A stretch of DNA of 64,000 nucleotides from a virus: positions 1 to 64,000 of IMG/VR virus record IMGVR_UViG_3300042383_000546; one strand, written 5' to 3'. Made by a program: the position numbers and the translations under genes. Of this stretch, positions 26,327-64,000 are shown piece by piece. The notes beneath the pieces were generated by a model, which was not told the origin of the DNA, did no database searches, and saw nothing but the letters and a program-made list of their open reading frames with translations. Numbering within the stretch: the stretch's first letter is position 1; every line of letters begins with the position of its first letter.

Positions 26327-26815
26327 TTAACAAGGGAATGTACTAATAATATTACCGCTATTATCTACTTGATAGCTGTCTGCACCTGCTCCTTGAGAAT
26401 ACCACAAGTTTCCACCCGCAACAGGAGTTACTCCACAGCCACCTGACACATAAAGTATTGTAGGGGCTAAAGCGTTATCAGTATCAAACAATGTTAAAGT
26501 ATTGAAATGGTCGCATGGGTTTACATTGTTAGGATATAAGAATAATTGCTGACAAGCTGCTGTTGTCGTAGTGGTTGTTGTACTAGTAGTTGGTGGGGGT
26601 TGTAAATTTGATTTTACGACTAGTTGATTTGAAGCCTTACTTGCATATGGTCCATAAGCTGTATCAATATATACATAATAGTCAGCATCAGCTTTTGTAA
26701 TCTGCTCTGTGCTTACAGGGATGGTATTTTTTAAGGCAAATACCCCTGTAGTTACAGCATCTTGAAGATTGTTAAAAGATATACATTGATTATTTGCTAT
26801 ACCTGCCCAACTCAT
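26327..26815 (-). CDS. fibre-associated protein with Thr linker and Cys-bounded C-domain
   Basis: PPPTTSTTTT linker; C-domain similar to that of 12354..13355. Confidence 0.7.
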   Translation of the reverse strand: MSWAGIANNQCISFNNLQDAVTTGVFALKNTIPVSTEQITKADADYYVYIDTAYGPYASKASNQLVVKSNLQPPPTTSTTTTTTTAACQQLFLYPNNVNPCDHFNTLTLFDTDNALAPTILYVSGGCGVTPVAGGNLWYSQGAGADSYQVDNSGNIISTFPC

Positions 26816-29800: not shown

Positions 29801-32800
29801 CCACCCCCTATAGTTGAAAACCCACCTAATGCTGAGTTATTTTGTCCTCCTCCTATTGTAGATACTGTTCCTCCTGCTCTATTCTGAAATCCTCCTCCTA
29901 TTGTAGATAATTGACCTGCTGCATATAAAGTTGTAGGAGCAACTGAGAAAAACCCATTAGCACTCCATGTACCACCACTTGTATTATTACCAACTCCTCC
30001 TGCTATTGTTGCTCCTGCTGTACAAGTTGTTGCTGTGGCACAATATAATATATTACAAACACCACCTCCTATAAAACCATCATTACCATTTACGCAGTTT
30101 TTATAACCACCTGATATAGTAGATGAATAACCTTCTGATTTATTACAAAATCCACCACCTGAAAATCCATAAGTATTAGATGCACTATTTAATCTACCTC
30201 CAACTATAGCTGACCTTTGTCCTCCTGCAATATTTACATAACCTCCACTTACTGTAGATTGGCTTCCATTAGCTTGGTTACCATAGCCACCACTTACTGT
30301 AGTTCCACTTCCTGTTGCTCTATTTCCACAACCTCCACCTACAAAAGAACAAGCTCCTGATGCTGTGTTACTCCACCCCCCACTTACTGTAGCCCTACAA
30401 GCACAAGCAACATTACCACCGCCCCCACTTACTGTTGCATGGTCAGTAGTAGCAGCATTTGCGTATCCACCACCCACTGTAGCAGCATAACCTGATGCAG
30501 TGTTTCCACCACCACCACCTACGCTACCTCTATATCCTGAGGCTGTATTTGCACGTCCTCCTGCTATTGTTGAATAGTTGCCTGAAGCTGTACCTGAATT
30601 ACCACCACCAACTACTGCTCTGATTCCTGAAGCTGCATTTGATGAACCGCCTCCAACAAAACTTCTTGCTCCTGATGCACTATTACCACTACCACCTACA
30701 ACTATACCTTGATAACCACTTGCAGTGTTACCATAACCACTACCAATAAATGCATATTGTCCACTTATTGTATTTTCTCTACCACCACCTATAAATGATT
30801 TTCCGTTTAGAACACAGTTTCTAAGACCTGAACCAATACCTGAATAAGCATCTGCTGTTACACAGTTACATATACCACCTGAAATATTTGAATATGCTAC
30901 TGTTACTATATTGCAACTACCACCACTTACAATAGAACTATATCCTGAAGCAGTATTAGTAAATCCTCCAACAACACTTGCATAAGCATTAGTTGCTCTA
31001 TTCTGAAATCCTCCTCCTATGAAAGAAAGACATCCTACATTTACTTTAGTAGGAGCTACTGTCCATCCATTTGAACCATTCCAAGTACCACCACAAGTGT
31101 TATTTCCAAGACCTCCTGCTATAACAGAATACCCTGAACAGTTTTGTGCTGTTGAATGACAAATACTATTGCAATAACCACCTGATATTGTAGAATACCA
31201 AGAAGAAGCTGAATTAACAGCACCACCACCAACTGTAGAAGATGCTTGTGAAGATGTGTTATATACACCACCTCCTATAGTTGATTGTATACCTGAAGCT
31301 GCGTTATTGCTGCCACCACTTACAGTTGAACAATTAGCTGAAGCTGTATTAGCTCTACCACCTAATACTGATGCAGAACATCCTGAAACTACACTACAAT
31401 ATCCACCTCCAATAAAACCAAATATACCTGCTGAACAAATACAGTTGACTTCACCACCTGCAATAGTTCCTGATGCACCTGTAACTGTATTTAATAAACC
31501 ACCACCTATGGTAGACCTTGTTCCTGCTGCTGTATTACTACATCCACCTAAAAGAGAAGAAGCATATCCACCTGAAACTGTATTTCCACAACCACCACCT
31601 AAAAAAGACATACATCCTGAAGCAACGTTATTTGTACCGCCACCAACTATTGCAAATGGAGCTGACGCAGAATTGGAAGCACCACCTGATACAGTGGCTG
31701 CTCTACATCCTGTAACAGTATTATTTGCACCTCCTCCAATTGTAGCATCATAAGTTCCTGATGCTGTATTTCTATATCCACCTGAAACAGTACTTGTTAT
31801 TGCTATGGCAGCATTACAATGTCCACCTCCTACAAAAGAATAATTACAAACTCTATTCAAATAACCTCCACCTATTGTTGAACAAAGTCCACAAGCTGTA
31901 TTAGAAAGACCTCCTGCAACAACTGCAAATCCATTACTTACTGTGTTTGCTTGACCACCACCTACAAAAGAACAAGCTCCTGAAGCTGTATTTGAGCATC
32001 CTCCACCAACAAAAGAACGAGCACCTGAAGCAGCATTACCTATACCATTTCCTACAAAAGAATATTCTCCTGAAGCAACATTATTTACACCTGTTCCTAT
32101 AAAAGATACGTTACCATTTGCTGTATTTGCACCACCATTACCTATGAAAGCATAATAAGTACCACTTGCTGTGTTATTATTACCTCCAACAACTATATTA
32201 TAAGCAGTTCCACCAATTGTATTGCTTAAACCTGCAAGATTACCCGTATATGTTCCTGTTGCACTATTACTTACACCACATCTTACAGAAGAACAACCCC
32301 CTGCTCCTAAAACGATTACAGCACCAACACCTGAAGAACCACTAGAACCACTTGAACCATTCGTTCCTGAGCTGCCACTAGTACCTGAGCTTCCTGATGA
32401 GCCACTTGAACCACTTGTGCCTGAACTTCCTGATGAGCCACTTGACCCACTTGTACCTGACGAACCACTCGTACCTGAACTTGCACTCGTACCTGACGAG
32501 CCACTAGTCCCTGAATTTCCACTAGTACCACTTGACCCTGATGAGCCTGAGCTACCTGATGAGCCTGAAGTTGCACTCGTTCCACTGCTGCCACTAGTTC
32601 CTGACGAACCACTTGAGCCACTAGTTCCTGACGAACCATTTACCCCTGAAGTACCTGACGAACCACTAGAGCCTGAAGTTGCAGACGTACCTGAGCTACC
32701 ACTAGTGCCTGACGTTCCATTTTCACCTGCAGTGCCTGAGCTTCCACTTGACCCACTAGAGCCCGAAGTTGCTGACGTACCTGAGCTACCATTTGCCCCT

Positions 32801-35256
32801 GAAGTGCCTGACGAACCATTTGTTCCTGACGAACCTGACGAGCCATCAGTTCCTGACGAGCCACTCGTTGCAGAAGTACCTGCACTACCCGAAGTAGCTG
32901 AAGTACCTGATGAGCCATCCGTTCCACTGCTGCCATTCGTTCCTGAAGTGCCTGAGCTACCTGAAGTTGCTGACGTACCACTTGAAGCTGACGTACCACT
33001 AGAAGCACTCGTGCCTGAGCTACCATTTGTACCACTAGTGCCATTCGCCCCTGAAGTACCTGACGTACCACTTGGAGGGTTAAATGTCGTTTGAGCGTAT
33101 GAGTAGTTACTCGTACCCTCTGTATAAAAAGTCAAAGTCTTACTAGAACCACCATCGTGTTCTGCATAAATTTGACAATAAAGCCTGTCTGTTGCGTTTA
33201 ATGCGGTTTGACCTAAAAATAAGTCTGTAAAAAACTCTTTGATTACACCTGATGCCATAGACTCAGTGTCTAGGTTTGTAGTGCCTAAAAGAGTTGAAAC
33301 ACCACCTGTTGTGTAACTATAAAGTTCTATGTCTATAGCTACGTTTGCATTTGTATCAATAGAAAAGTGTGTTACCCAAGCCCAATTCCCTGCAGGAATA
33401 CTTGTGAAGTTTGGAACACCTGAATCAGTTGCAAAAGTAGCAATCAGCGTTCTTACATTTTGATTACTTGTAACCGTAACAGTTGTTTCCCCTGTTGTTG
33501 TACCAATAGGAGACCATTGTTTATATGTAGGACTGCCAAAAGCAGAATTTGTATTTAAAGACTGATTTAGATAGTATACTAGACCACCTGCAACACCACT
33601 CACACCACTTGTACCTGTTGTACCTGAGCTTCCTGATGATGCGGACGTACCACTTGACGCACTTGTACCTGAGCTGCCTGAAGTTGCAGACGTGCCACTA
33701 GTACCTGATGAGCCTGAGCTACCATCCGTACCATTTGTACCTGACGAACCTGAAGTTGCAGAAGTACCACTTGATGCACTTGTACCTGAGCTTCCACTTG
33801 AACCACTCGTGCCACTCGTACCTGTTGTTCCTGATGAGCCTGAACTTGCTGAAGTACCTGAGCTGCCACTTGAACCACTAGTGCCCGAACTTGCAGAAGT
33901 ACCTGACGAACCATCAGTACCTGAGCTTCCATCCGTACCTGCCGTACCTGCAGTGCCTGACGAACCACTTGATGCAGAAGTTCCTGAACTGCCTGAAGTA
34001 CCTGCCGATGCACTCGTACCTGAAGTGCCACTTGAAGCACTCGTACCTGACGAACCATCAGTGCCTGAGCTACCATCAGTGCCTGAGCTCCCATCCGTAC
34101 CACTAGTGCCTGTAGTTCCTGAAGAACCTGAACTAGCACTCGTTCCTGATGAACCACTAGAGCCTGACGTTGCAGACGTGCCTGACGTTCCTGCAGTACC
34201 TGAAGAGCCTGAACTAGCACTCGTGCCCGAAGAACCACTTGAACCTGAAGTCCCTGAGCTACCTGATGAGCCACTTGACCCTGAAGTTGCAGATGTTCCA
34301 CTACTTGCAGACGTACCACTACTTGCACTCGTTCCACTAGAACCTGACGTGCCTGATGTCCCTGCCGTACCCGAAGAGCCACTTAGACTCTTTTGGTTCA
34401 TAATAGCAGTGGTATTATTTATCTTTATATATACAGGGTAAGCATCACCGACAGCGGGAGGGGTTACTGATAAGTTATTCAAACCACTTGGGTCAAAATA
34501 TAGTACATCTCCCACGTTACCAACAAGAGTAGGTAAGCCACTTACGATACGACCAACGGGTCTTACACGAAGATTACCATTTTCAGGGGTATCAGCAGAA
34601 GTGACCATACCCGCTATCTGAACGATATTGGGCTCTAAAGTAGAAGTTACTTTTACAAATTTTCCTGAGCTATCTATTTTAACAAAGTCACCAACGGCAA
34701 TACCTGAATAAGTATCGTCATCGGGGTCAATGCAAAAAAAGTCAGTTATATAGTTTCTGAATCTAAACCTATCATGTAGGTCATTTAGCCAATTGGATAA
34801 GTCTCCGATTTGGCTTCTAATTTGTTCTGTTGCTACAACAATAGGTAGCCCATCGTCACCTAATCTAAAAATAACACCTACGAAACCTTCAGGTGGGAAG
34901 TTATTTCCCATTGAGGTGTTATCAACAATAAGATTATAAAGGTCTACGTCTTGTAGAATTACGGTACAGCTTGTATTAAACTCACCGCCAATATTAGATA
35001 TAGCATTAATGCGGTAGCAGTTACCATTTGGTAAGCCAAGCCACATTCCAACTTCAATATTTGTAGAAGTATAGTAAAGAGGTGGAGTAGTATCGTAACT
35101 ACTCGTCTCTTGTATTTCAATAGTTAAATCACATTCAAAAGTGAATGGAGAGCCATTCCAAGGACTAAGTGCATTTACATAGGTCGATACTACACTTGTA
35201 GAACCGAAGTTTATACTTGCAGGTATTGTAATAGGTGGTTTTATCAAACTCGCCAT
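26815..35256 (-). CDS. giant fibre/spike protein with Gly-X-Y (G-T-S/G-S-S) repeats, 15-residue beta-helix repeats and a C-terminal peptidase S74 chaperone
   Basis: 2813 aa; SSDERLKDI...IGYSAQNVQEILP...VDY...LEERIAKLE. Confidence 0.85.
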   Translation of the reverse strand: MASLIKPPITIPASINFGSTSVVSTYVNALSPWNGSPFTFECDLTIEIQETSSYDTTPPLYYTSTNIEVGMWLGLPNGNCYRINAISNIGGEFNTSCTVILQDVDLYNLIVDNTSMGNNFPPEGFVGVIFRLGDDGLPIVVATEQIRSQIGDLSNWLNDLHDRFRFRNYITDFFCIDPDDDTYSGIAVGDFVKIDSSGKFVKVTSTLEPNIVQIAGMVTSADTPENGNLRVRPVGRIVSGLPTLVGNVGDVLYFDPSGLNNLSVTPPAVGDAYPVYIKINNTTAIMNQKSLSGSSGTAGTSGTSGSSGTSASSGTSASSGTSATSGSSGSSGSSGTSGSSGSSGTSASSGSSGTAGTSGTSATSGSSGSSGTSASSGSSGTTGTSGTDGSSGTDGSSGTDGSSGTSASSGTSGTSASAGTSGSSGTSASSGSSGTAGTAGTDGSSGTDGSSGTSASSGTSGSSGSSGTSASSGSSGTTGTSGTSGSSGSSGTSASSGTSATSGSSGTNGTDGSSGSSGTSGTSATSGSSGTSASSGTSASSGSSGTTGTSGVSGVAGGLVYYLNQSLNTNSAFGSPTYKQWSPIGTTTGETTVTVTSNQNVRTLIATFATDSGVPNFTSIPAGNWAWVTHFSIDTNANVAIDIELYSYTTGGVSTLLGTTNLDTESMASGVIKEFFTDLFLGQTALNATDRLYCQIYAEHDGGSSKTLTFYTEGTSNYSYAQTTFNPPSGTSGTSGANGTSGTNGSSGTSASSGTSASSGTSATSGSSGTSGTNGSSGTDGSSGTSATSGSAGTSATSGSSGTDGSSGSSGTNGSSGTSGANGSSGTSATSGSSGSSGSSGTAGENGTSGTSGSSGTSATSGSSGSSGTSGVNGSSGTSGSSGSSGTSGSSGTSATSGSSGSSGSSGSSGTSGNSGTSGSSGTSASSGTSGSSGTSGSSGSSGSSGTSGSSGSSGSSGTSGSSGTNGSSGSSGSSGVGAVIVLGAGGCSSVRCGVSNSATGTYTGNLAGLSNTIGGTAYNIVVGGNNNTASGTYYAFIGNGGANTANGNVSFIGTGVNNVASGEYSFVGNGIGNAASGARSFVGGGCSNTASGACSFVGGGQANTVSNGFAVVAGGLSNTACGLCSTIGGGYLNRVCNYSFVGGGHCNAAIAITSTVSGGYRNTASGTYDATIGGGANNTVTGCRAATVSGGASNSASAPFAIVGGGTNNVASGCMSFLGGGCGNTVSGGYASSLLGGCSNTAAGTRSTIGGGLLNTVTGASGTIAGGEVNCICSAGIFGFIGGGYCSVVSGCSASVLGGRANTASANCSTVSGGSNNAASGIQSTIGGGVYNTSSQASSTVGGGAVNSASSWYSTISGGYCNSICHSTAQNCSGYSVIAGGLGNNTCGGTWNGSNGWTVAPTKVNVGCLSFIGGGFQNRATNAYASVVGGFTNTASGYSSIVSGGSCNIVTVAYSNISGGICNCVTADAYSGIGSGLRNCVLNGKSFIGGGRENTISGQYAFIGSGYGNTASGYQGIVVGGSGNSASGARSFVGGGSSNAASGIRAVVGGGNSGTASGNYSTIAGGRANTASGYRGSVGGGGGNTASGYAATVGGGYANAATTDHATVSGGGGNVACACRATVSGGWSNTASGACSFVGGGCGNRATGSGTTVSGGYGNQANGSQSTVSGGYVNIAGGQRSAIVGGRLNSASNTYGFSGGGFCNKSEGYSSTISGGYKNCVNGNDGFIGGGVCNILYCATATTCTAGATIAGGVGNNTSGGTWSANGFFSVAPTTLYAAGQLSTIGGGFQNRAGGTVSTIGGGQNNSALGGFSTIGGGSNNIVCVIGANAYSTIGGGQGNTLSSQYGGLIAGGTSNTASGYYVTIGGGRSNNAPAGTSTISGGKCNTSSGGYSSIGGGISNISSGACSTIGGGQTNTSSGGHTVVVGGVNNTASGCRAFVGGGLSNLAFGNNTTVGGGLYNCACGNESGSLSGLYNLASGAVAIVAGGRSNTASGGCSAIGGGRANTASGGASTVSGSYNVSSATNSTVAGGQNNTASGAFSFIGGGCVNVANSTNSTVAGGRNNRACATFATVSGGYANASSGESSTISGGFINTASGACSTIGGGLCNTASGRDSSIGGGNLNRACGCGLHVIGGGYNNTASGNYYSSVLSGESSTATGRNSVITGGYLNTSSGNYSFVGGGQSNTASGSRSAVGGGQSNTASGCFSSVGGGCNNTASGVYSVVGGRQNLASAAHSVVSGGVVNIACGDTSTVSGGYSNLASGSWSFVGGGYDVTASSSDSVAAGGRSNTASGACSFVGGGQQNAASGAHSTVGGGQLNTASGGQSTVSGGKLNSAIGICSTVSGGYNNRACAGFTTIAGGHNNLVSSITGTIGGGYTNTSSGTYDATIAGGALNVASGNKSTVGGGQSNTSSGASATIGGGLSNTASGACSTVSGGQGNVTCAGFGSIGGGVNNKACGGGATVAGGNANTASGYNAFVGSGFLNTASGYRATIGGGDTNTASGDRSFVGGGVSNTASSTFSTVSGGCANSATATRATVSGGFGNLASGDRATVGGGGTNCALNTADTVAGGINNRACAAYSTVSGGYNNSALGYMSVVGGACVNTASGNTSVVAGGRTNTASGSCSFVGGGNGNIASNFYSTVSGGLSNTSSGCHSFVGGGNGNTVSGIYSAILGGKNVTVSGAYSGGGGVCFTGGCSSTFYWNNFCAISCMWAQAYFESSDERLKDIHCRVNSFDNINPIYFKWKEGDSSRINIGYSAQNVQEILPDTVRTDEKGKLNVDYHQVHIYKMMTLEERIAKLEEKLKKYEA
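27150..32320 (-). repeat. coding tandem repeat, ~45 bp (N-x-A-S-G-x-x-S-x-V/I-x-G-G-x-x)
   Basis: roughly 100 degenerate units in the fibre gene. Confidence 0.85.
32325..34385 (-). repeat. two blocks of 9-bp coding repeats (SGT/SGS) separated by a globular domain
   Basis: SGTSGSSGT low-complexity blocks at ~32325-33075 and ~33590-34385. Confidence 0.85.
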
Positions 35257-39147: not shown

Positions 39148-39951
39148 TTAATTGCCTGAAGCGTAAACGTCTTTAATATTATATTCAGCTATATAGTCCT
39201 TAATAAACTTATCGATGATTTGGTATCTTATTTTATTTTCGGGACTAGGAAACCCTATAAATGTTTCTCCAAATGCAGCATAAGCCTCCTTGATTGGATA
39301 GCCTAAGCCTAAATATATTGTAAGACCGTTTAAGTCTGCTTCAGTTTCGTTTGCTATATCACTATTCACATAGTAGTGGCTAAACTCATGGAGTAAAATT
39401 GCCATTCTCATAGGAATAGTAAAAGGCACAAAGGCTTCCTGAGAAACTTGTATTCTACCATTTTTTGTGCTGATACGAGCAGGTGTAGCCATTTTCTGAC
39501 CTTTACTGCTAATAATAAAAGGTAAATATTCAATTTTGAAATTACCTGCAGCACTTACATAATCTTTTTTAGAAGATAACGAACCTGCATTATAACAGAA
39601 CTTTTGAGCAAAAGCAACGAAGTTTCTTACAAGTGGAGTGTCCATTTTGGTTTTACCCAAAGTAATATCTAGCTCCTCTCTTTTTACTTCTAGTACTTCA
39701 AAAGTAGGGTCTTCACCCTTTTTCTTATTACCATTCTTTTCATTATAGATGTCCAAAATACAAGTGTTTGGAGCTAAAGGCATCCTAACATATAATTCTT
39801 GAGTTCCATCTATTGTTTTAGTTCTATTGGTAAAATAGGTATTAGCCTGACCCTTATCATACACCTTTAATACAATAACTTGAGGACTAGTCGTTTTCAC
39901 TACTACCTTCACTTTGCAGGGGGCAAATCTCGTCCACAGGTTATATTGCAT
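39148..39951 (-). CDS. zincin-like metalloprotease (candidate maturation protease)
   Basis: ILLHEFSHY...NETEAD (HExxH plus downstream ExxAD). Confidence 0.7.
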   Translation of the reverse strand: MQYNLWTRFAPCKVKVVVKTTSPQVIVLKVYDKGQANTYFTNRTKTIDGTQELYVRMPLAPNTCILDIYNEKNGNKKKGEDPTFEVLEVKREELDITLGKTKMDTPLVRNFVAFAQKFCYNAGSLSSKKDYVSAAGNFKIEYLPFIISSKGQKMATPARISTKNGRIQVSQEAFVPFTIPMRMAILLHEFSHYYVNSDIANETEADLNGLTIYLGLGYPIKEAYAAFGETFIGFPSPENKIRYQIIDKFIKDYIAEYNIKDVYASGN

Positions 39952-44793: not shown

Positions 44794-45615
44794 CTATCCT
44801 ATATACTGAGCAAGTAGCCTTCTTTTAACTTCAGCTCTTGCCGTATTATCATTATATTTTTTCTTATTCTTTTCGTCTTTGAGCACCAAATAAGGATTTG
44901 TAAGAGCTCTAAAGTTTTCGCTAATATATTGCTCTACTGCATCTTCAATCATTTCTTGGCTATAGTTACCTCTGATGTTTGATTCGTCCATGTCCACATA
45001 ACAGTAAAACCTCTTGTTGCCTGAATCGTACTGAGTGTTTACCATGATTTCGGCAATACGCATATACTCAAACTTATCAGGGAATTTATTTTTATGCCTT
45101 TCAACTGATTCGACATTCTTATGAAATCTTAATTGGTTTAGATTACCCCAAAGTTTAGTAACAATTCTGCCAATAGACTGATAAGACAGAATAATGTCTA
45201 AGCCAACGTGACGATTGGTAGCAATAGCACCAACTAAATCAGAAGGCATATGGTCACCGATAAATTTAGAAGGGTCTTCAATGACCAAAAGTCCATTTTT
45301 AAAAGTGCTTAATACATAGAACAAAGCCTGAGCCCATTCGTCTAGTGTCATTCTAGTTCCGTTGGGGTGGAAAGGTCTTATCCTTCTAACTTCTACATGA
45401 GGGTGAACAGTAAAAAGACCTACGTCATTAAGCGACAAAGCTCTGATTCCAAATACTCCATACTCATCGTTTACGTCCATTACAAGAGCCTTACGACCTT
45501 TAATGCCATGATAAGGGTCTCCTTCTACATATTTGTTTATGGTAATCATGTGAGCCCAAGTTTTTCCCACACCTTTTTTACCAACTGCTGCCATCAATAA
45601 AGGTTCTCTTCCCAT
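44794..45615 (-). CDS. FtsK/HerA-superfamily genome-packaging ATPase (A32/P9-like)
   Basis: Walker A GKKGVGKT, Walker B LLVIED, Arg finger NRH, sensor SYQ; no nuclease domain. Confidence 0.8.
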   Translation of the reverse strand: MGREPLLMAAVGKKGVGKTWAHMITINKYVEGDPYHGIKGRKALVMDVNDEYGVFGIRALSLNDVGLFTVHPHVEVRRIRPFHPNGTRMTLDEWAQALFYVLSTFKNGLLVIEDPSKFIGDHMPSDLVGAIATNRHVGLDIILSYQSIGRIVTKLWGNLNQLRFHKNVESVERHKNKFPDKFEYMRIAEIMVNTQYDSGNKRFYCYVDMDESNIRGNYSQEMIEDAVEQYISENFRALTNPYLVLKDEKNKKKYNDNTARAEVKRRLLAQYIG

Positions 45616-55215: not shown

Positions 55216-55929
55216 TTATAGTGCTTTGTCCTTATAGATAAGTGCTAAAAACCCGTCTAGACCTAACATTTTAAGTAAATAGCCTCTACTTTCAACAGGT
55301 ACAGAAGACATTTGTGACAGCGTTGTACTATCTATTGGTTCTAAGATTGCTTTTGTTCCTTTACTGATTGCTCTGTTGTAAGCTCCTGCATTGTAAGCAA
55401 CCATAGCTTTATTAAGCTGACCTCCTGAAAGAATTGTAGTAAATCTTTCTAAAAGCCATCTTAAAATCATTGTACCTGCCATTACGTTGAAATTAGCATC
55501 TCTTTGTAGATTAGACAAAATACTACTTCTAAGACCTGCCGTTAAGGTTTTAGCCTTTAATAAATCAGGAACTCTTTGATTTAAAAGATTAACACTCTCT
55601 TGAGGTAATGGGCTATCGACTTCGCTTCTCCATTTTCTAGCCACTTCGTATATAGCCGTTGGTGTTACTTGCATAAGACCTGTAGCTTGAAACCTATTAG
55701 GAGCTGCCATAGTACCGCCACTTTCAGTACCAATAAATCCGATAATCACACCAACAGGTATTTCATACAAAGTAGCCCATTTCTCTATGATTTTACCGTA
55801 GTTAGAATTAATCTGTTGAATCATTTTTATGTTAGCAGCCTTAACTGATGGGGTGCTGTAATTATAAGTCCCTGCCTTAAATGAAGTTTTAATATCAGGA
55901 ACTTTTAAAAATATCTTGGAGTAAGCCAT
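55216..55929 (-). CDS. lytic transglycosylase (SLT domain)
   Basis: IGTESGG, ATGLMQV, AYNAG. Confidence 0.9.
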   Translation of the reverse strand: MAYSKIFLKVPDIKTSFKAGTYNYSTPSVKAANIKMIQQINSNYGKIIEKWATLYEIPVGVIIGFIGTESGGTMAAPNRFQATGLMQVTPTAIYEVARKWRSEVDSPLPQESVNLLNQRVPDLLKAKTLTAGLRSSILSNLQRDANFNVMAGTMILRWLLERFTTILSGGQLNKAMVAYNAGAYNRAISKGTKAILEPIDSTTLSQMSSVPVESRGYLLKMLGLDGFLALIYKDKAL

Positions 55930-56087: not shown

Positions 56088-56669
56088 TTATTTCTTTTTT
56101 ATGTACAAATATATTCCAAGTCCTAATAGTAAAATGCCTAAACCTAGCCCTTTCTTGTTTTTTCCCACAAATTCCACTATTTGTGCCCTTAGCATTCGTG
56201 CTTTTAGACCTCCCGCATATTCAGATATTTCCTTTTCTGCTTGAGGTGTACCATAAGCTCCAAAACCATAGTATCTTCTCTTTTTAAGTAGTCTTGAAAA
56301 CTCCTCAGGTGTTTTTGCATTTTTCAGTTGCTCAGGGGTTACACCACCCATAGTCTTACTATAAAGCCTAACTATTTTATCGGTAGCACTATCCTGAACT
56401 GAGCGGAACTTTGCATAGTGGTCTGAGTTTTTGCATTCACCACCACTTCTGCAAGATGCACTCCTTTCGTTTGTAGGTGCAAGTGTACCTCTAGTAGCTA
56501 ACGGCTGACCAATGAATTTCATACCGCTAGTATTGTTATTTGCTTTGAATACTGCTGATGTATAGTTAGCACTCTCAAAACGAGCTTGTCCTACCACAAA
56601 CTTAGCTGCAGTAGGAGTAAAGCCCTGTTTAATAGCGGTATCGTATATTATTTGGTCGTAGTTAGCCAT
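56088..56669 (-). CDS. glucosaminidase (GH73-like) with C-terminal membrane anchor
   Basis: QARFES, NNNTSGMK, YAKFRS; GLGLGILLLGLGIYLYIKKK. Confidence 0.75.
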   Translation of the reverse strand: MANYDQIIYDTAIKQGFTPTAAKFVVGQARFESANYTSAVFKANNNTSGMKFIGQPLATRGTLAPTNERSASCRSGGECKNSDHYAKFRSVQDSATDKIVRLYSKTMGGVTPEQLKNAKTPEEFSRLLKKRRYYGFGAYGTPQAEKEISEYAGGLKARMLRAQIVEFVGKNKKGLGLGILLLGLGIYLYIKKK

Positions 56670-59600
56670 TATTTTTTCTTTTTAGCCATTTTCTCTTTTA
56701 ACTGAGCCATCCTAGAGCCAACGATTCTTTGAGCTGATTCTTTAGCCTCTGCCTTTGAGTAACTCTTACCATAGTCCTTTTGAACTTGAGGTGCTACTTT
56801 TTTACGCTTTAGTAAAGACTCCTGAACAGATTTTACTTTGTCAGCAAATTTTACTTTGCCACCTGAAGACATTTTTTCATTAACATACCAATCATATTCT
56901 ATTTGTGGTTTTACATCTAATCCCTTTTCATCTTTTAGTATAAAAGTTGCTCCTTTTTGATATTTTGACATTCTAATTATTGATTCCCATTCTTTGTCAG
57001 TTATTTTACTTCTTGGAACTCCTAATATAGTTATATCTTCTCTTGTAATTTCACCACCTTTAGCCATGTAGCCACCATCTTTGTAAAAATTCCCTGTTTT
57101 AATATTTTCAAAGTTTTTCTCTAAAGACTTTTTAGCTAGTTCTAGTGAAGAATAGCTACCTGCATATAGTCTATGATTTGAGTCATATACATTTCCGTCA
57201 TCTTTGTGATAAAAGAATTTTCTACCCTCAACTTCAAAAGGCTGACCACCTTTTCTTGTCATACCACCTTTTGCCATTTTGGATTCAAAATTGTCCATAA
57301 TCATTTTCAAAGTATCTCTCTTACCGCTATAGTTTCTTGGCATTCTAGCGTGTATACCATTAATCTTAAATATTTGTACATCAACTTCTTTAGTACCTAC
57401 AAACATTTTTAATTGTACGTCTTTACCATCAACTTCTTCACTAATAAAATGCCACTTATTTGGCTCTTTCATGGCATCTTTCACCTTTTTTTCAAATGAG
57501 TCAGTTACTCCACCATCAGCCATTTGTTTTTTACCTAAAATTTGAGATAATTTTTCTTCTACTCTTTCCCTTACAACACTATCATGTACTCCTAAAACTT
57601 CATAAGGGTTATTACCTTGACCCGTTAGAGCCCAAAATCCTCTGAATGTCATTGTATCATTTATTTCTTTACCTAAATCATCGGTTGGATAATTTTTAAT
57701 ATACCAATCTTTAATTTTCATACCACTTCTAGCACCTTTAGGCATTACTCCACCTTTAGCCATTTTGTAATCAACTTTGACCCAATCTTTATTTGCTACT
57801 TTACCTTCTGCACCATACATTCCTTCAAAGAACTCTTTATCATTATCATCGTATTTGAAATATACTTTTCTAAACTTTCCATCATCAATTTTAGTTATTT
57901 TCAATTTCCCAAAACCTTTACGTTCATAAACATCACCTACTTTTACTTCACCACCTTTAGCCATGTAGCCACCTTTCTCTAACATTGGTTCTATTTGCTT
58001 AGGATAATTGTTTTCAGGATAACTTTTTACTAATCTTGCATAACCATCTATTTCTTCTTTAAGTTGCTCTTTAGTGCCATTATCCCCTTCAGAACCAACT
58101 TTTCTTAAATTTTCAGTTGGTTGCATACCATCCGTATCTAATCTTACTTCATATTTATCTGAAAGGTAACCATCGTATATACCAATAATAGTACCATATC
58201 TCTCATTATCAACATCCCAAACAATTTCCCCTAATTTAAAATCATCAGAAGTTTGTTTTGAGTAATCTAATGAACCACCTTTTAATGCTGAATTTTTAAC
58301 ATAAACACCATCTAAAATATCTGAGCCTTTTAGCTTCAATGATTTATTATTCAGAGTTACCATTAACTCTTTAATATCTTCGTTTGGTATATATGTACTT
58401 GGAACTTTACCACCTTTAGCCATTTTACCTTCTGCTCTAAATTTTTCTAATAATGTATCAGGTAAAGGATTATCTAAATAATCAATATATCCTTTTGCAG
58501 ATTCTATTTGCTTTTCTTTAGACATACCCATAGATTTTTCTCCTGTTGGTTTACTTTCGTCTAAATCAATAATAAATCTAGTTCCTCTATTTGGGTTTAA
58601 AACCTCAATTACACCATTGTTGTTATTCTCTACAATACCATAACCTTTATAAATTTCTAAAATGGTATCTCCTATTTGAAAACCATGAATAAGCATACCT
58701 CCTAATTCCATTTCACCACCATCTTCAAAGAAACCGAATAGTTTAGTTTCTTTTGGTTTGCCACCTTCAAAATCTTCCAAATCTTTGTATACTGACTTCT
58801 GACCATCAGTAAATAGGAATTTACCTTTGTTTTCGCCTGAGTCTATTTTACCTATGAACTTGAACTCTTCACCGCTTTTGTCTCTATACCAACGTCCTGC
58901 AGTCATGCCACCTAAAGCATATAAACCACCTTTTTCAGCTTTTTCCATTCTTACAGCTATTTCTTTAAGGTGCTGAGGTACGAAAGAGAATAAGTTAATT
59001 GACATTTCAGCTCTATAATTGTAAATAGACGCACTCATAATGTCACTAACAGCTTCATAGAAGTTAGCGTCATCTGTGCCTGAATTTTCTACTACTTGTT
59101 TCTCGATTCCGAATAAACCATCTACATATTTAGCACATCTTGCTAAACTCTCTTTTTCACTTTCTTTTGCGTTCTGCATGATTTCCATAGCAGATTCAAA
59201 CTCTTTTACTGCAGTTCCGCAGATGTCAAAGTTTTCTGTTTGGTAACCGAATACGTCAATATTCTTTCCTGAACCGAAGTGTGCAGGTACTTTACCCCCT
59301 TTAGCCATTTTAGGCTTCAATTTGCCTTGTTCTACATAAGCATCAAATGAATTTTTAGATATACATTTTAAAATTGAATCATCTTTTTTGTAAAATAAGC
59401 AAACCTCATCATCTATACCTAATGATGAGTCTTTAATATAAACTTCCTCTTCACCCATCATATAGGAATTTCCTACTTGACCACCATCAGCCATTCTATA
59501 TCCTTTACCTGATTTAGCAAAATCAACGATTTCTTTTGCGTATTGATTGTCTTTATTTCCTGATACTGCTGTTGCAAAGTCAGATGCAGTTATCATTCGT

Positions 59601-62600
59601 CTACCAAGTCCTTGCATAATATTTGACAAATCTGATTCTGTTAAGTTGTTTTCGTCTGAAAATCTTTCGACTCCTGACTTTCCTACACCTGTCATGGATG
59701 AAATCTGTTCTATAGTCAAATCTTTAATACTTTTCATAGTTTTTGTTTTTCCACCATAAGCCATGTAGCCACCTTTCTCATAACGAACATTACTCAATAA
59801 ATTGTATGCTATTTGTAAATCTTCATCAGCATAATTTGTTCCTGATTTTTCTTTAATTCTACGAGAAAAGTCTTCAAAGGAATTACCTGTTGCGTAAATA
59901 TCATTCTCATAAGCAAAGTCTGCAATTTTTTCTGAATCACTTAATTCAATAGATTTTTTGATGTTGTCAGCTAAACGATGGTAACCCTCCATTCTTAACA
60001 AGTACTCGAAAGCTCCTGCTATTCCATTACCATCCCAACCTGAATTTTGAGAAACTTTTACTGCAAAATCTCTAGTCTTTGCATCACCATGCCAATATTT
60101 AGAGTCGTATTTCTCGTTGATAGCATCAAACTTTACTTTAAATTCAGGGTCGCTTGGACTTGGATAATCAGGTTTAACCGCAATTTCAGGTTTTTTTTCC
60201 AATATGCTAACTAGCTTTCTTGCTGCATCGTGATAATTGGCATCAGTAAAGGCATCTACGGCAGCTTGAGCCATAATTAATTCATAATCTGCACCTAATT
60301 TTTTAGGGGTTAAACCCTTTTGTGAAGCCATTTTTCTGACTGCCAAATTTAATTCACCACCTTCAGCATAATTCATATTATTATTTTTTAATTCGTTTTC
60401 AGATTTAATATTTCCACCATAAGCCATTTTTTTGAAAGGATTGCCCTTTGGAAGAGCTTTATCTCTTAATCTTTTTAATCTAATATCGTGAAGTTTTTTA
60501 GCTAATTTATTCAATGATTCAATTTCATATGATAAATACTCTATATGACCTGAATCTTGACTTTTTTCATCTAATAGTTTTTTTAGTTCTGATTGATATT
60601 CGTCTCTCTTTTTGATTGCACTATTCATATCTTTTTCAATCTGCAAATCTATATCTTCATCAGTTTTACCCCCATCAGCCATTTTTTTATAACTTTCAAC
60701 ATCATACACAATTTCCAAGTCTTTCTTTTCTACTCTTACTATTGGAGGGTAAGCCCATTTTTTGTCTTCATTCAGAACTCGAATATCTATTTGTTCATCA
60801 TCAGAAAATTTTTCAATATCTTCTTGAATAACAACATATAATTGATTTGGGTCTTCATCGGGAAGTGGGTTTTTAATGATTACAATATCACCTATTTTTA
60901 ATTTACCACCTTTAGCAAATCTTAATACTTCTTTATCATTTGCATTTGAACCTCCAAAAGATGTTGTTAAGTTGGTTTTTATTCCATCTTCCCATAATAT
61001 CTCTTGACCTTTAATAGTTCCATGATAATATTCACCATTACCTAAATTCATTCTAATTTTATCCCCATTGGTAAGGTCTTTGTATTTAGTACCATAACCT
61101 ATGTTTCTTCTTAAAATCCAATTACCTTTTGTTGAACCACCTTTAGCAAATTCATCAGCATTTTCCAAAATGGAAGTATCTAAATGCTTAATAGCCTCAC
61201 TAAACCCACCTTTATATTCGTGTTGTTTAATACCTTGTAAAGTGAAAGTATCTAATATATCTTGTTTTAATGGCTCTAAAGACTTACTAATCTTTTTTAC
61301 TTCATACTGAAATGGCTCTTTTCCAAAACCAAAGGTAATTGAAGCTGTTGCACCATCTTGCTTGTATGTGTAATCATAAGAGTCTTTATCGGACAATGTT
61401 AGTTTTACTGTCCTTTTTGTTTTTCCACCTTTTTCCATATATTGTTTATCTATATTAGACAATTTTATTAATAGTGTTGCGTAACTTTTGCCACAATCAA
61501 TGTAAGTGAATTTGCCTTCCTCTTTCTCAATAACAATTGATAAGTCACCCTCTAAACCTACTTGAATATTAACTTTTTCAGATAAGTCTATTTGTGCATC
61601 AGTATCGTAATCAGCCTCATGCAATTTGACAACCTTATATCCCAAACTTTCTAAAGAATTGGCTATCTTTTTGGCTTTATCATTTGCAAAGTCTATATCT
61701 TGTTCCATGTCATCATAAATGTCCCCACCATCAGCCATTTTATCTGCTGAATAAGAGTTGTATAATTCTACAAAGTAAGGTTTAGGATATTTTTTATATG
61801 CTTTGTTGTAAGCGGAATCACGAGCTGTAGCTCTTACCTTAAATTCTTTCTTTTCTATAATTTTATCGTCCTCATCTCTTAGTATAGCCTTAAACTCATA
61901 TATCATAGGAGCTTTTTTAACAGCTCCACCTTTAGCCATAGTTTCGTTAGGTGCAGATACTAATTTCCAATTTTCCCAAACATATCCATAAGGTTTAACC
62001 CAACCATAGTCTTTTTTGTAAAAGCTGTCTTTACCGTCAAAGAACGCATCTACTTTGTCTTTGCTATGAATTAAATCTTTTAACTCTTTATACTTTGATT
62101 TATCAACAATGTTAATCATAGAATAAATAGGCATATCCTTTGCTTGTTTGATTTTGAAGCCTTTTTCTCCTAATTTCTTTTGGCTTTCTACATACTCTTT
62201 AGCATCACTTTCATTATCGTACATTTCAACAACACGAGGTACTGACTTACCATTATTGAACCTAGTAAAGAAAACCACATATTTTTTGCTTACCTCACCA
62301 CCTTTAGCATATTTATTGTTTTCCCACTTGCTCCAATCAACTGCATTGATTAAATCTTGCAGACTTTCAAACCATTGTGTATCGTATGCACTACCCTCTA
62401 ATTTAACGGCTTCAGTTTTTCTGCTTTTAACAAATCTTTGAACAGCTATGGATTTTCTTCCCTCGTCAGTTGGCTCAAGCACCTCTTTGAATATAATAAT
62501 ATTTCCTTTTTTCTTTAAGATAGCCTCTTTCTTTGCGTCTGTTAAAATTCCACCATCAGCTAAATAAGGCTTTTTAGACGTTTGTTTATCTGTACGATTG

Positions 62601-62950
62601 GCTCTCATTTCATAGTAAACTTTACCTGTTTTTGAAATACGCTTTCCTGCAGGTAAGGACTTCCTATCACCATCTCTAGCAATATTATCCTTCTTTCTTT
62701 CCTCTTTTGCAGGGGCTTTAGCAGGTGTTTTTTTAGCCACAGACTTTTTAGCAGCCTTAATTTTTTCAGCTACTTTAGATACTTTTTTAGTTTTTACGGC
62801 TTTTTTTTCAGCAGCCTCCATTTCCTCTAATTCTTTTTCAAGTTTAGATTTTTGTGCCTTCAATGGAGCTATCAAATTAGAAGGGGTAGCCTTACTTTTT
62901 ATGCCGTTTTCTAATTTATCTATTTTAGCTTTAAGTTCCTGCTTTGTCAT
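56669..62950 (-). CDS. 2093-aa modular protein (putative polyprotein) punctuated by [MFY][AE]xGG motifs
   Basis: 27 motif copies counted by eye, separating unrelated segments; basic N- and C-termini. Confidence 0.85.
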   Translation of the reverse strand: MTKQELKAKIDKLENGIKSKATPSNLIAPLKAQKSKLEKELEEMEAAEKKAVKTKKVSKVAEKIKAAKKSVAKKTPAKAPAKEERKKDNIARDGDRKSLPAGKRISKTGKVYYEMRANRTDKQTSKKPYLADGGILTDAKKEAILKKKGNIIIFKEVLEPTDEGRKSIAVQRFVKSRKTEAVKLEGSAYDTQWFESLQDLINAVDWSKWENNKYAKGGEVSKKYVVFFTRFNNGKSVPRVVEMYDNESDAKEYVESQKKLGEKGFKIKQAKDMPIYSMINIVDKSKYKELKDLIHSKDKVDAFFDGKDSFYKKDYGWVKPYGYVWENWKLVSAPNETMAKGGAVKKAPMIYEFKAILRDEDDKIIEKKEFKVRATARDSAYNKAYKKYPKPYFVELYNSYSADKMADGGDIYDDMEQDIDFANDKAKKIANSLESLGYKVVKLHEADYDTDAQIDLSEKVNIQVGLEGDLSIVIEKEEGKFTYIDCGKSYATLLIKLSNIDKQYMEKGGKTKRTVKLTLSDKDSYDYTYKQDGATASITFGFGKEPFQYEVKKISKSLEPLKQDILDTFTLQGIKQHEYKGGFSEAIKHLDTSILENADEFAKGGSTKGNWILRRNIGYGTKYKDLTNGDKIRMNLGNGEYYHGTIKGQEILWEDGIKTNLTTSFGGSNANDKEVLRFAKGGKLKIGDIVIIKNPLPDEDPNQLYVVIQEDIEKFSDDEQIDIRVLNEDKKWAYPPIVRVEKKDLEIVYDVESYKKMADGGKTDEDIDLQIEKDMNSAIKKRDEYQSELKKLLDEKSQDSGHIEYLSYEIESLNKLAKKLHDIRLKRLRDKALPKGNPFKKMAYGGNIKSENELKNNNMNYAEGGELNLAVRKMASQKGLTPKKLGADYELIMAQAAVDAFTDANYHDAARKLVSILEKKPEIAVKPDYPSPSDPEFKVKFDAINEKYDSKYWHGDAKTRDFAVKVSQNSGWDGNGIAGAFEYLLRMEGYHRLADNIKKSIELSDSEKIADFAYENDIYATGNSFEDFSRRIKEKSGTNYADEDLQIAYNLLSNVRYEKGGYMAYGGKTKTMKSIKDLTIEQISSMTGVGKSGVERFSDENNLTESDLSNIMQGLGRRMITASDFATAVSGNKDNQYAKEIVDFAKSGKGYRMADGGQVGNSYMMGEEEVYIKDSSLGIDDEVCLFYKKDDSILKCISKNSFDAYVEQGKLKPKMAKGGKVPAHFGSGKNIDVFGYQTENFDICGTAVKEFESAMEIMQNAKESEKESLARCAKYVDGLFGIEKQVVENSGTDDANFYEAVSDIMSASIYNYRAEMSINLFSFVPQHLKEIAVRMEKAEKGGLYALGGMTAGRWYRDKSGEEFKFIGKIDSGENKGKFLFTDGQKSVYKDLEDFEGGKPKETKLFGFFEDGGEMELGGMLIHGFQIGDTILEIYKGYGIVENNNNGVIEVLNPNRGTRFIIDLDESKPTGEKSMGMSKEKQIESAKGYIDYLDNPLPDTLLEKFRAEGKMAKGGKVPSTYIPNEDIKELMVTLNNKSLKLKGSDILDGVYVKNSALKGGSLDYSKQTSDDFKLGEIVWDVDNERYGTIIGIYDGYLSDKYEVRLDTDGMQPTENLRKVGSEGDNGTKEQLKEEIDGYARLVKSYPENNYPKQIEPMLEKGGYMAKGGEVKVGDVYERKGFGKLKITKIDDGKFRKVYFKYDDNDKEFFEGMYGAEGKVANKDWVKVDYKMAKGGVMPKGARSGMKIKDWYIKNYPTDDLGKEINDTMTFRGFWALTGQGNNPYEVLGVHDSVVRERVEEKLSQILGKKQMADGGVTDSFEKKVKDAMKEPNKWHFISEEVDGKDVQLKMFVGTKEVDVQIFKINGIHARMPRNYSGKRDTLKMIMDNFESKMAKGGMTRKGGQPFEVEGRKFFYHKDDGNVYDSNHRLYAGSYSSLELAKKSLEKNFENIKTGNFYKDGGYMAKGGEITREDITILGVPRSKITDKEWESIIRMSKYQKGATFILKDEKGLDVKPQIEYDWYVNEKMSSGGKVKFADKVKSVQESLLKRKKVAPQVQKDYGKSYSKAEAKESAQRIVGSRMAQLKEKMAKKKK

Positions 62951-62987: not shown

Positions 62988-64000
62988 TTATACCAATAAC
63001 TTTAATGCCTCTAAAGTATCTTCAGCGTCCTTATCACCCGTTTCAGCTAATATTTCTAAAGCAGCTATTGTTTCTAAGATTTCCTCTCTTGTAGCTTCAG
63101 CTTCAGGTTCGGGTTCTATGTCTTCAGGCTCAGGGACAACAACAGTAGGTGGAGGCTCTTGGGCTATCGGAACTACTGCCTTTTGCTCTTCTAGTTTGGT
63201 TTCCATTTCGTCTACAGAAGGCTCTACAACCTGAGCTACCAATTCGTCATTTTTAACGAAATCTACAACCTTTTCTCCACCTTTCTTTTTGTCCACAACC
63301 ATACCTAGACCTGTTTCCCCGCTTTTTCCTTTGTAGTCTATGTATTGGTCTTCTCTAATATCTGAAGGTGGAACGAAGTCACCTATTCCGTATTTACGCT
63401 TTGCAACCTCAACGATTTTTTCCATAAAAGTGCCAATGTATTCTAGCTCCTTTCCTGCAGGATAAGGTCTTTGGTAGCCTTCGGCAATAATATCTTCCAT
63501 AGGAATATCAGCCACTAAGTAGTTACTAACTCTGTCTGCATCAAATAACTTTTTTAGAATCCATGTTTCCCAAGAACGAGCAAACAGCTCCACAGCACTT
63601 GTCCAATATTTAGTTCTACGAACACCGCCAATTATGTATCTTTTATACTTAACTGTAGGGTCTAAATAGACATATTGAAAGTAGGAATAGGCTGTTTTAT
63701 GGTATAAATAGCTAGTTTTTAGCTTCATTGGTATTTCATAGCTTTCAAGTCCGAACTGCTTGATTATGTAGCCAAATACCTTTACTTGTCTAGGAAGTTG
63801 TGCTTCTTCTACTACTGCAAAATCGTCTAAATCAAGCTCATTAATAGTCTCTTCAATTGTTGCTTTGATTTCTATTGATTTAGATACCCACCTTCTTTGT
63901 TGAGCATTCCAAACGCTGTAAGTAGGCACTTCTTCAACTTCCTCAGCCTTAAATTTCATAGGAACTCTAGGAGTATATAAGTCATTACCCTTATAAATAA
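62988..64000 (-). CDS. large polyvalent protein, LPD1-like domain (5' end beyond the window)
   Basis: YWTSAVELFARSWETWI...PYPAGKEL; frame stays open to the window edge. Confidence 0.7.
   Translation of the reverse strand, partial: IYKGNDLYTPRVPMKFKAEEVEEVPTYSVWNAQQRRWVSKSIEIKATIEETINELDLDDFAVVEEAQLPRQVKVFGYIIKQFGLESYEIPMKLKTSYLYHKTAYSYFQYVYLDPTVKYKRYIIGGVRRTKYWTSAVELFARSWETWILKKLFDADRVSNYLVADIPMEDIIAEGYQRPYPAGKELEYIGTFMEKIVEVAKRKYGIGDFVPPSDIREDQYIDYKGKSGETGLGMVVDKKKGGEKVVDFVKNDELVAQVVEPSVDEMETKLEEQKAVVPIAQEPPPTVVVPEPEDIEPEPEAEATREEILETIAALEILAETGDKDAEDTLEALKLLV

Follow-up and report, generated by a model that had tools for sequence, protein, structure and literature searches.

Why should a virus encode one very long protein in which the same short peptide recurs again and again between otherwise unrelated small domains? 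This question is raised by a gene at 56669..62950 (minus strand) of the DNA analysed here, which comprises positions 1-64,000 of the virus record IMGVR_UViG_3300042383_000546 and is called the window below; the whole record has 84,229 bp and an estimated completeness of 90%. The gene, one uninterrupted open reading frame (ORF) of a genome with about 34% G+C, encodes P0001, a protein of 2093 amino acids (aa) without any Pfam, PHROG or NCBIfam family or domain. A preliminary description, made from the sequence alone, had located a di-glycine motif at 22 places in this protein and had interpreted the whole as a polyprotein that is packaged into virions and cut into small effectors. Our answer is that P0001 is very probably an array of cassettes that related viruses exchange at this motif, which we call the seam, and, far more tentatively, that the array might also be cut apart there.

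P0001 contains 32 Gly-Gly dipeptides, 25 of which match the pattern [MFYLIW][AES]xGG, and the other seven occur in looser forms (EYKGG, TSFGG, AEKGG, DFEGG, ALKGG, TRKGG and YKDGG). In 2000 shuffles of P0001 the pattern was found 0.83 times on average and never more than five times, and the remaining ORFs of the window, amounting to 17,377 aa, hold six loose matches, so the motif is strongly enriched in this protein. All 22 motif positions in the preliminary description proved correct, with an error of at most about 5 nt, while its count of five doublets (of the form GG-x-hAxGG) has to be raised to six, namely seams 11, 14, 15, 17, 20 and 21 of the table. The seams divide P0001 into about 22 modules of at least 18 families. 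The spacers between them had been described as mostly 55-190 aa long and dissimilar; they measure 55-196 aa and are indeed mostly unrelated to one another, except that the modules at residues 410-509 and 510-605 are paralogous and that two more pairs co-cluster by single linkage. The termini are very basic, as also expected, with an isoelectric point of 10.1 for residues 1-134 and 10.3 for residues 2032-2093, while the part between them is slightly acidic, at 5.95. Across the whole 84-kb genome, seam arrays are present only in P0001 and in a 1366-aa protein encoded two genes upstream (genome 65492..69592), which carries 8-10 copies of the motif together with ART-PolyVal, DUF5661 and DUF5824 domains; no orphan seam-bearing fragments were found elsewhere in that genome.

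The seam is not a peculiarity of one virus. A search of 5.8 billion proteins yielded a set of 51 homologues of 1155-2226 aa, many of which are more than 85% identical to P0001 over only 5-40% of its length, and all 51 carry the motif, in 10-28 copies each. A logo drawn from 1110 different Gly-Gly sites has K or Y at position -4, M (46%), Y (16%) or F (12%) at -3, A (59%) or E (17%) at -2, K (36%) or D (24%) at -1, then the invariant GG, E, Y or K at +1, and V, M, L, T or I at +2. The information thus spans positions -4 to +2 around GG, or about seven residues, as long as the footprint of a protease or a binding partner. Since M, Y and F are conserved through unrelated codons (ATG, TAT and TTT) and the signal is some seven residues long, the peptide itself appears to be under selection. 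The spacing of the motif is bimodal, with 149 doublets at a distance of six residues, almost no distances of 10-50 residues and a broad peak at 55-100, and this fits each interval having to hold a minimal folded domain.

To see how widespread the arrangement is, the last 67 residues of P0001 can be used as a query of their own. Against 1.84 billion representatives of clusters at 50% identity, this C-terminal module had 449 matching clusters at E<=1e-3, of which 210 also passed E<=1e-10, and it was nearly always located at the C-terminus. Of the new matches with at least 400 aa, 64 of 66 have at least three seams, and these 66 proteins, which share only the C-terminal module, contain 416 seams, compared with 4 after shuffling. 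Because the C-terminal module occurs in 449 representative clusters, the arrangement is evidently common in environmental viruses. Full-text searches of the literature with motif strings and family names returned no description of the seam motif.

Where do the seams lie with respect to protein domains? Among the homologues, the Pfam domains LPD11, ART-PolyVal, Zeta_toxin, DUF5661, DUF5824 and DUF2958 each fall within a single inter-seam interval; some of their edges are 0-4 residues from a seam, and none of the domains contains one. We also modelled residues 1048-2093 of P0001 with AlphaFold2, using 41 sequences. The mean predicted local distance difference test score (pLDDT) is only 52, since many cassettes have few relatives. 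In this model every seam that is flanked by confident domains is coil with a pLDDT below 50 (model residues 294-302, 756-769, 837-853, 908-919 and 978-985, which are seams 14, 19, 20, 21 and 22, respectively). The domain borders and the predicted structure together show the seam as a flexible linker between domains, and neither in these Pfam domains nor in the modelled part did we find the motif buried within a fold. The string of independent small modules that had been proposed is likewise borne out, in that the Pfam domains of homologues fill single modules and AlphaFold2 predicts separate small domains. The suggestion that several modules are of SH3/KOW type fared less well: small beta modules are predicted, although with moderate confidence (for example residues 1349-1412, with four to five strands and a pLDDT of 56-68), and the accompanying NCBIfam match to EF-P is weak (E=0.05).

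When the 51 proteins are divided at the motif, 917 modules result, which form 231 families, 109 of them singletons. Four fixed parts are common across the different architectures, namely an N-terminal, a central, a small beta and a C-terminal module (counts are given in the table), and the cassettes between them differ in kind and order from one homologue to the next. Consistent with this, 49% of the ends of BLASTP segments that match P0001 lie within eight residues of a seam, compared with 19% for random positions. Homologues thus gain, lose and reorder modules and are not collinear.

The same pattern is visible in DNA. A syntenic relative, IMGVR_UViG_3300027804_000069 (L003), has flanking genes that are 82-88% identical to those of the window and the same gene order (giant protein, LPD1 protein, array protein, glucosaminidase, SLT). 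Within the P0001 gene, however, only three DNA blocks align to L003, and they begin or end no more than three codons from seams (see table). Furthermore, islands of 26-39 nt with 93-100% identity to L003 are found at doublet seams, and the sequences flanking these islands do not align. Whole modules are therefore exchanged, gained and lost at seams among related viruses. For the gene of the 1366-aa protein, four block ends could be located relative to L003, two of them at seams and two elsewhere. A 1.5-kb block of that gene (genome 66284-67774; L001:4284-5774), whose ends are not at seams, is 96% identical to L003, and this value, set against the background of 82-88%, suggests a recent exchange.

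Codon use at the seams is unusually uniform. In P0001 the seam Ala is encoded by GCT in 17 of 18 cases, compared with 48% elsewhere (Fisher p=2e-4), and the first Gly by GGA in only 1 of 22, compared with 26% elsewhere (p=0.03). Seven other array genes, on separate contigs, have the same Ala and Gly biases (pooled p=7e-13 and 3e-5), and the dominant seam DNA is ATG-GCT-AAA. We considered whether GGA is shunned because it would create a Shine-Dalgarno sequence (AAGGAGG), but this explanation is poor, since Shine-Dalgarno-like leaders precede only 4 of the 109 genes of the genome; the starts instead follow A-rich leaders, which is the pattern of Bacteroidota, and the host of the virus is probably a member of this phylum. 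The uniformity would be better explained if seams repeatedly exchange with or convert one another, or if microhomology is selected for. In either case, uniform seam DNA provides microhomology for in-frame exchange, and the borders of the exchangeable modules are marked by a conserved peptide and a conserved DNA motif at once, as in a cassette system.

What purpose might such an array serve? We propose that P0001 would be a cargo protein of the polyvalent type, belonging to an uncultured virus, in which small cassettes that each fold on their own are joined in frame and set between three fixed parts: the basic N-terminal module, the central four-helix module followed by the small beta module, and the basic C-terminal module. 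All joints consist of one and the same exposed peptide of about seven residues, [K/Y]-[M/Y/F]-[A/E]-[K/D]-G-G-x-[V/M/L/T/I]. By the precedent of polyvalent proteins in other phages, P0001 may be packaged into the particle and injected. A zinc protease encoded by the virus would then cut the seams, the candidates being an LPD1 protein with an HE[WY]GH motif, encoded immediately upstream of P0001, and an HEFSH protein encoded at 39148..39951, and the delivered string would be released as some 20 individual mini-proteins, which would act on the host. That the seam is also a recognition and cleavage site has, in our judgement, somewhat less than an even chance. We put at roughly 0.4 the probability of the complete picture, in which these are true polyproteins of a bacterial virus, a zinc protease frees about 20 mini-proteins (55-100 aa) from each injected chain, and the seam also serves to reshuffle the library. 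The polyprotein interpretation of the preliminary description thus survives in part: independent modules, motifs between domains, gain and loss of modules and kinship with polyvalent proteins all stand, the last seen in the six Pfam domains named above, which homologues carry as single modules, and in the ART-PolyVal and LPD1 domains of the neighbours, whereas processing is retained as a possibility.

The two HExxH proteins are the only protease candidates. The 833-aa protein encoded between the two array genes does carry a Pfam LPD1 domain, as had been stated, and has no seam motifs itself. Its sequence GDGS[VL]AHE[WY]GHY[FI]DN contains an HExxH that is invariant in 120 of the 120 homologues listed, over which a core of about 390 aa is at least 48% identical; 208 proteins match at E<=0.001. 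Residues 363-487 match the NCBIfam model CLCA_X with E=4.8e-24 and 85 bits, below the family cut-off of 260, and the Pfam annotation covers only the 78-aa LPD1 part. The 833-aa protein matches no Pfam peptidase and no MPTase-PolyVal, and searches of PDB sequences with the protein and with its profile gave no relative. The LPD1/HExxH protein adjoins arrays in L003 and in another locus, L006, as well. The second candidate, P0053 (267 aa), had been suggested as the protease earlier; the HEFSH motif is there, and a homologue with 43% identity lies 9 kb from an array in L022. The sole lead to a family is a weak Atlas match to a DUF4344 metallopeptidase, and a lenient Pfam scan of the HExxH regions of both candidates returned nothing.

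Several observations weigh against processing of this kind. At E<=10 the genome, 90% complete, has no match to Peptidase_C48 (PF02902), Peptidase_C5 (PF00770) or MPTase-PolyVal (PF18818), and the top 25 Pfam or PHROG families for 91 ORFs include no peptidase; a very divergent clan-CE enzyme, or one encoded in the missing 10% of the genome, is still conceivable. P0053 matches no Pfam, PHROG or NCBIfam family. In L016, L021, L022 and L025-L028, no LPD1/HExxH protein turned up within 10 kb of the arrays, and the LPD1/HExxH domain is also part of a 2808-aa protein of the type found in phage phi24B, which has no seam array, so that the link of this domain to the seam is weak. Beyond fragments at contig ends, we found no homologues that naturally start or end at a seam and no stand-alone single-module genes for the variable cassettes. 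With respect to the delivery route, the top Pfam and PHROG matches of the 91 ORFs include no family of terminases, portals or HK97 capsids. Finally, exchange at seams and codon uniformity are equally well explained without any cutting.

Indeed, the seam might never be cut. It would then be a plug-and-play joint that offers DNA microhomology for exchange and a Gly-Gly hinge, and P0001 would work as one beads-on-a-string chain, perhaps passing through a narrow delivery channel. This account, which we regard as a real possibility although a somewhat doubtful one, draws on much of the evidence described above: homology blocks stop at seams, modules are shuffled between relatives, eight genes have a codon bias at synonymous sites of the seam, the short near-identical islands sit at doublets, the model renders seams as coil of low confidence, the arrays have no protease firmly linked to them, and there are no natural termini at seams. 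Furthermore, gp45 of phage crAss001, which is likewise rich in Gly-Gly sites, was modelled by its authors as one chain across tail and capsid (PMC10172136). However, a hinge or a DNA signal leaves unexplained why a hydrophobic residue is maintained by way of ATG, TAT or TTT, why A or E is found at -2 and why another hydrophobic residue follows at +2. In addition, a microhomology of 15 nt is short for homologous recombination, and two of the four block ends in the gene of the 1366-aa protein are not at seams.

Protein-level selection, a footprint of about seven residues and exposure in linkers could also mean that the seam is a repeated docking handle, bound by a putative partner (a protein of the capsid interior, the portal or a membrane, or a chaperone) that loads or orders the string in the particle. 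The 20-30 copies per chain would confer high avidity, arrays are always accompanied by conserved basic terminal modules that resemble addressing or anchoring parts, and the segments of crAss001 gp45 that are bound to the tail barrel and portal lie between Gly-Gly sites. In that protein, however, it is the modules that are bound and not the Gly-Gly sites, most of which are of another variant (A[FY]GG). The known cargo signals of phages, for example the T4 capsid-targeting sequence and scaffold-binding peptides, occur once, as a tag at a terminus, which also speaks against a handle repeated along the chain, and we consider this explanation unlikely. A still less probable one starts from the prominence of Met at -3, often after a Lys AAA codon, from the dominance of ATG-GCT-AAA, and from the A-rich leaders, free of Shine-Dalgarno sequences, after which the genes of this genome begin. 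Seams could on these grounds be fossil or working translation starts, either because the cassettes are former small genes that began with Met-Ala-Lys-Gly-Gly or because internal ATG codons give nested products. But Tyr or Phe takes the place of Met in 28% of seams, and their codons cannot start translation; doublets would make no sense as starts; and except for truncated calls at contig ends there are no stand-alone genes that start with MAKGG. We hold this idea to be very improbable.

The fixed modules deserve a closer description. The N-terminal module includes a stretch rich in Lys, Ala and Pro as well as a coiled coil and the sequence LPxGKRISKxGxVYYExRxNRxD. In the more general form LPxGKRISKxGxxYYExRxNRxD, this sequence is strongly conserved and directly precedes the first seam, also in L018 and in L022, and the latter has the N-terminal module in tandem duplicate. 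The central module is modelled with a pLDDT of 89 and a predicted template modelling score of 0.85 as four helices and a small hairpin, and D1242, C1244, E1250, N1311 and H1327 are invariant in it. The invariant Cys and His led us to consider an embedded papain-like protease, which we rejected because the module is a confident four-helix bundle whose fold is not that of a recognisable protease. Foldseek against the PDB and a VIA-wide search returned only generic bundles as matches to the fold, and a profile search of PDB sequences gave only noise. An alignment of this four-helix module retrieved 2 viral and 25 metagenome loci, while P0001 alone retrieved none. The central module (VFGYxTxxFDxC ... 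PxH) is also found outside seam arrays (loci L007-L015, L004, L008 and L013); on marine contigs it forms stand-alone proteins of about 175-190 aa with a leader of about 60 aa containing M-I-R-x-N-G-G, and it is also fused to other domains.

Table. Seams, modules, blocks aligned to L003 and neighbouring genes, in coordinates of the window
Feature	Coordinates	Strand	Residues of P0001	Remarks
LPD1 protein, 833 aa, candidate protease 1	62988..64000, continues to 65489 (L001:988-3489)	-		Pfam LPD1; CLCA_X-like domain with HE[WY]GH
N-terminal module, basic, ends in seam 1 (LADGG)	62549..62950	-	1-134	family 3, 36/51 homologues; many invariant columns
L003 block 1	62950-62540			stops three codons past seam 1
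Seam 2, YAKGG	62297..62311	-	214-218	
Seam 3, MAKGG	61925..61939	-	338-342	
Seam 4, MADGG	61724..61738	-	405-409	
Seam 5, MEKGG	61424..61438	-	505-509	separates two paralogous modules (family 4)
Seam 6, FAKGG	61136..61150	-	601-605	
Seam 7, FAKGG	60905..60919	-	678-682	
Seam 8, MADGG	60668..60682	-	757-761	
Seam 9, MAYGG	60413..60427	-	842-846	
Seam 10, YAEGG	60356..60370	-	861-865	
Seam 11, doublet YEKGG-Y-MAYGG	59750..59782	-	1057-1067	30-nt island, 93% identity to L003
Seam 12, MADGG	59480..59494	-	1153-1157	
Seam 13, MAKGG	59294..59308	-	1215-1219	opens conserved core
L003 block 2	59308-58715			from Met codon of MAKGG 1215 to GG 1412
Central four-helix-bundle module	58931..59293	-	1220-1340	35/51 homologues
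Seam 14, doublet AEKGG-L-YALGG	58907..58939	-	1338-1348	coil, pLDDT <50
Small beta module	58715..58906	-	1349-1412	most frequent module (family 0), 72 copies among 42 proteins
Seam 15, doublet FEDGG-E-MELGG	58697..58729	-	1408-1418	central L003 block stops at GG 1412
Seam 16, MAKGG	58409..58423	-	1510-1514	
Seam 17, doublet LEKGG-Y-MAKGG	57950..57982	-	1657-1667	32-39-nt islands, 95-100%, to two L003 places
Seam 18, MAKGG	57749..57763	-	1730-1734	
Seam 19, MADGG	57509..57523	-	1810-1814	coil, pLDDT <50
Seam 20, doublet MAKGG-M-TRKGG	57245..57277	-	1892-1902	low-confidence segment, then confident module
Seam 21, doublet YKDGG-Y-MAKGG	57053..57085	-	1956-1966	coil, pLDDT <50; 26-nt island, 100% to L003
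L003 block 3	56874 onward			begins 2 nt before Met codon of last seam
Seam 22, MSSGG	56858..56872	-	2027-2031	opens C-terminal module; coil, pLDDT <50
C-terminal module, basic, helical	56672..56857	-	2032-2093	45/51 homologues; three helices, pLDDT 78-87
Glucosaminidase-family protein, 193 aa, downstream	56088..56669	-		Pfam PF01832; same gene order in L003
SLT transglycosylase, 237 aa, downstream	55216..55929	-		Pfam PF01464; same gene order in L003
P0053, 267 aa, HEFSH...ETEAD, candidate protease 2	39148..39951	-		91% identical orthologue in relative G001

Downstream of P0001 lie the glucosaminidase and SLT genes together with genes of lysis type, and in other lineages arrays adjoin SNF2-helicase giants and a topoisomerase-IB/ART-PolyVal protein. 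The sequence VGKRHS[EQ]GGI, followed by further Gly-Gly pairs, is present in the 1366-aa protein and in topoisomerase-IB proteins of marine and freshwater contigs (L025, L026 and L028). Elsewhere in the window, positions 26815-35256 encode a 2813-aa protein with collagen repeats, 177 Gly-Gly pairs and a C-terminal Peptidase_S74 chaperone domain, which is probably a fibre; this region has a G+C content of 0.40-0.46, compared with about 0.34, and adjoins several glycosyltransferase genes. An N-terminal Walker A motif (GKKGVGKT) is present in a protein of 273 aa encoded at 44794..45615. Neither Terminase_6N nor Pox_A32 has a match in the genome. Against 50,697 phage records, tblastn with P0001 and megablast with 20 kb gave no match, and the putative packaging ATPase had none in the phage records either.

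How does the seam compare with known systems? The preliminary description had pointed to adenain. Gly-Gly processing by clan-CE enzymes is known from adenovirus adenain, from pS273R of African swine fever virus acting on pp220 and pp62, and from Ulp1. Their sites have the register (M/L/I)-x-G-G-x, cut before the x, or (M/L/I)-x-G-x-G, cut before the final Gly, and adenain needs a hydrophobic residue at P4 and Gly at P2. In P0001, as in these systems, Gly-Gly preceded by a hydrophobic residue marks the unit borders of a viral structural or cargo precursor. However, if P0001 were cut after GG, its hydrophobic residue would stand at P5, three residues before the first Gly, and K or D directly precedes GG. 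The shifted register and the lack of a match to the corresponding enzymes in the genome speak against the analogy to adenain. Cassette borders that are marked by a motif are also familiar from polymorphic toxins, where the VENN motif (CdiA) and the PxxxxDPxGL motif (Rhs) play this part; these motifs are conserved in DNA too, and the Rhs motif is in addition a self-cleavage site. A polymorphic toxin, however, has one border and one C-terminal toxin accompanied by an immunity gene, whereas P0001 has at least 20 borders in one frame, and we saw no immunity genes or orphan cassettes downstream of P0001 or elsewhere in the genome.

The nearest relatives in kind are the polyvalent proteins of phages and conjugative elements, for which Iyer et al. 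(2017, PMC5512222) proposed injection together with the DNA and subsequent cleavage into units by metallopeptidases. Both they and P0001 are very large strings of unrelated domains with mosaic architectures. ART-PolyVal, LPD1, LPD11 and Zeta toxin occur in homologues or neighbours of P0001, whose gene lies between LPD1 and glucosaminidase/SLT genes. On the other hand, P0001 has about 22 modules, compared with the 2-15 described (PMC5512222), and most of them are 55-100 aa long and belong to no named family. It also has fixed terminal and central modules and lacks a detectable MPTase-PolyVal. The chief departure is the single conserved seam peptide that marks every joint; the text of PMC5512222 makes no mention of a glycine motif, linker, spacer or boundary.

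Two virion proteins of other phages offer further points of comparison. The protein gp47 of the Shiga toxin (Stx) phage phi24B, with 2811 aa and LPD5, LPD1, LPD38 and metallopeptidase domains, is a proposed ejection protein that mass spectrometry has revealed in virions (preprint 10.64898/2026.04.10.717836). Our comparison used the homologous ORF of 2808 aa (locus L031, vb_24B_48). This ORF and the 833-aa neighbour of P0001 have the HExxH/LPD1 region in common (residues 361-468, 38% identity), but the ORF has one chance match instead of a seam array and no similarity to P0001. The cargo protein C1 (gp45) of the Bacteroides phage crAss001 is carried in the virion, and two pieces of it, 214-245 and 425-552, have been resolved by cryo-electron microscopy (Bayfield et al. 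2023, PMC10172136). It has 21 Gly-Gly pairs in 842 aa (MH675552.1: 41987-44515, L032), and the resolved pieces lie between the Gly-Gly sites 209/263 and 427/562. Most of its sites have the form A-[F/Y]-G-G, however, and only one, FAEGG, fits the seam; a search of the phage collection found no sequence similarity to P0001, and the papers on gp45, including PMC10172136, contain no cleavage data. For the different form of its sites and this lack of reported cleavage, we rejected gp45 as a direct model for P0001.

Of all the proteins of a virus, the polyvalent ones are believed to encounter host defences first. Compared with those described so far, the arrays reported here come with an objective way to cut giant proteins into units, and the resulting modules, most of which are without a known relative, form a catalogue of candidate small effectors. 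The seam also gives a concrete mechanism for in-frame exchange of cassettes and, with a peptide of defined sequence and two specific candidate enzymes, a precise hypothesis of cleavage. If our proposal of a processed cargo is true, the seam would be a ready-made parser for hundreds of host-takeover or anti-defence domains in abundant aquatic and gut viruses of Bacteroidota.

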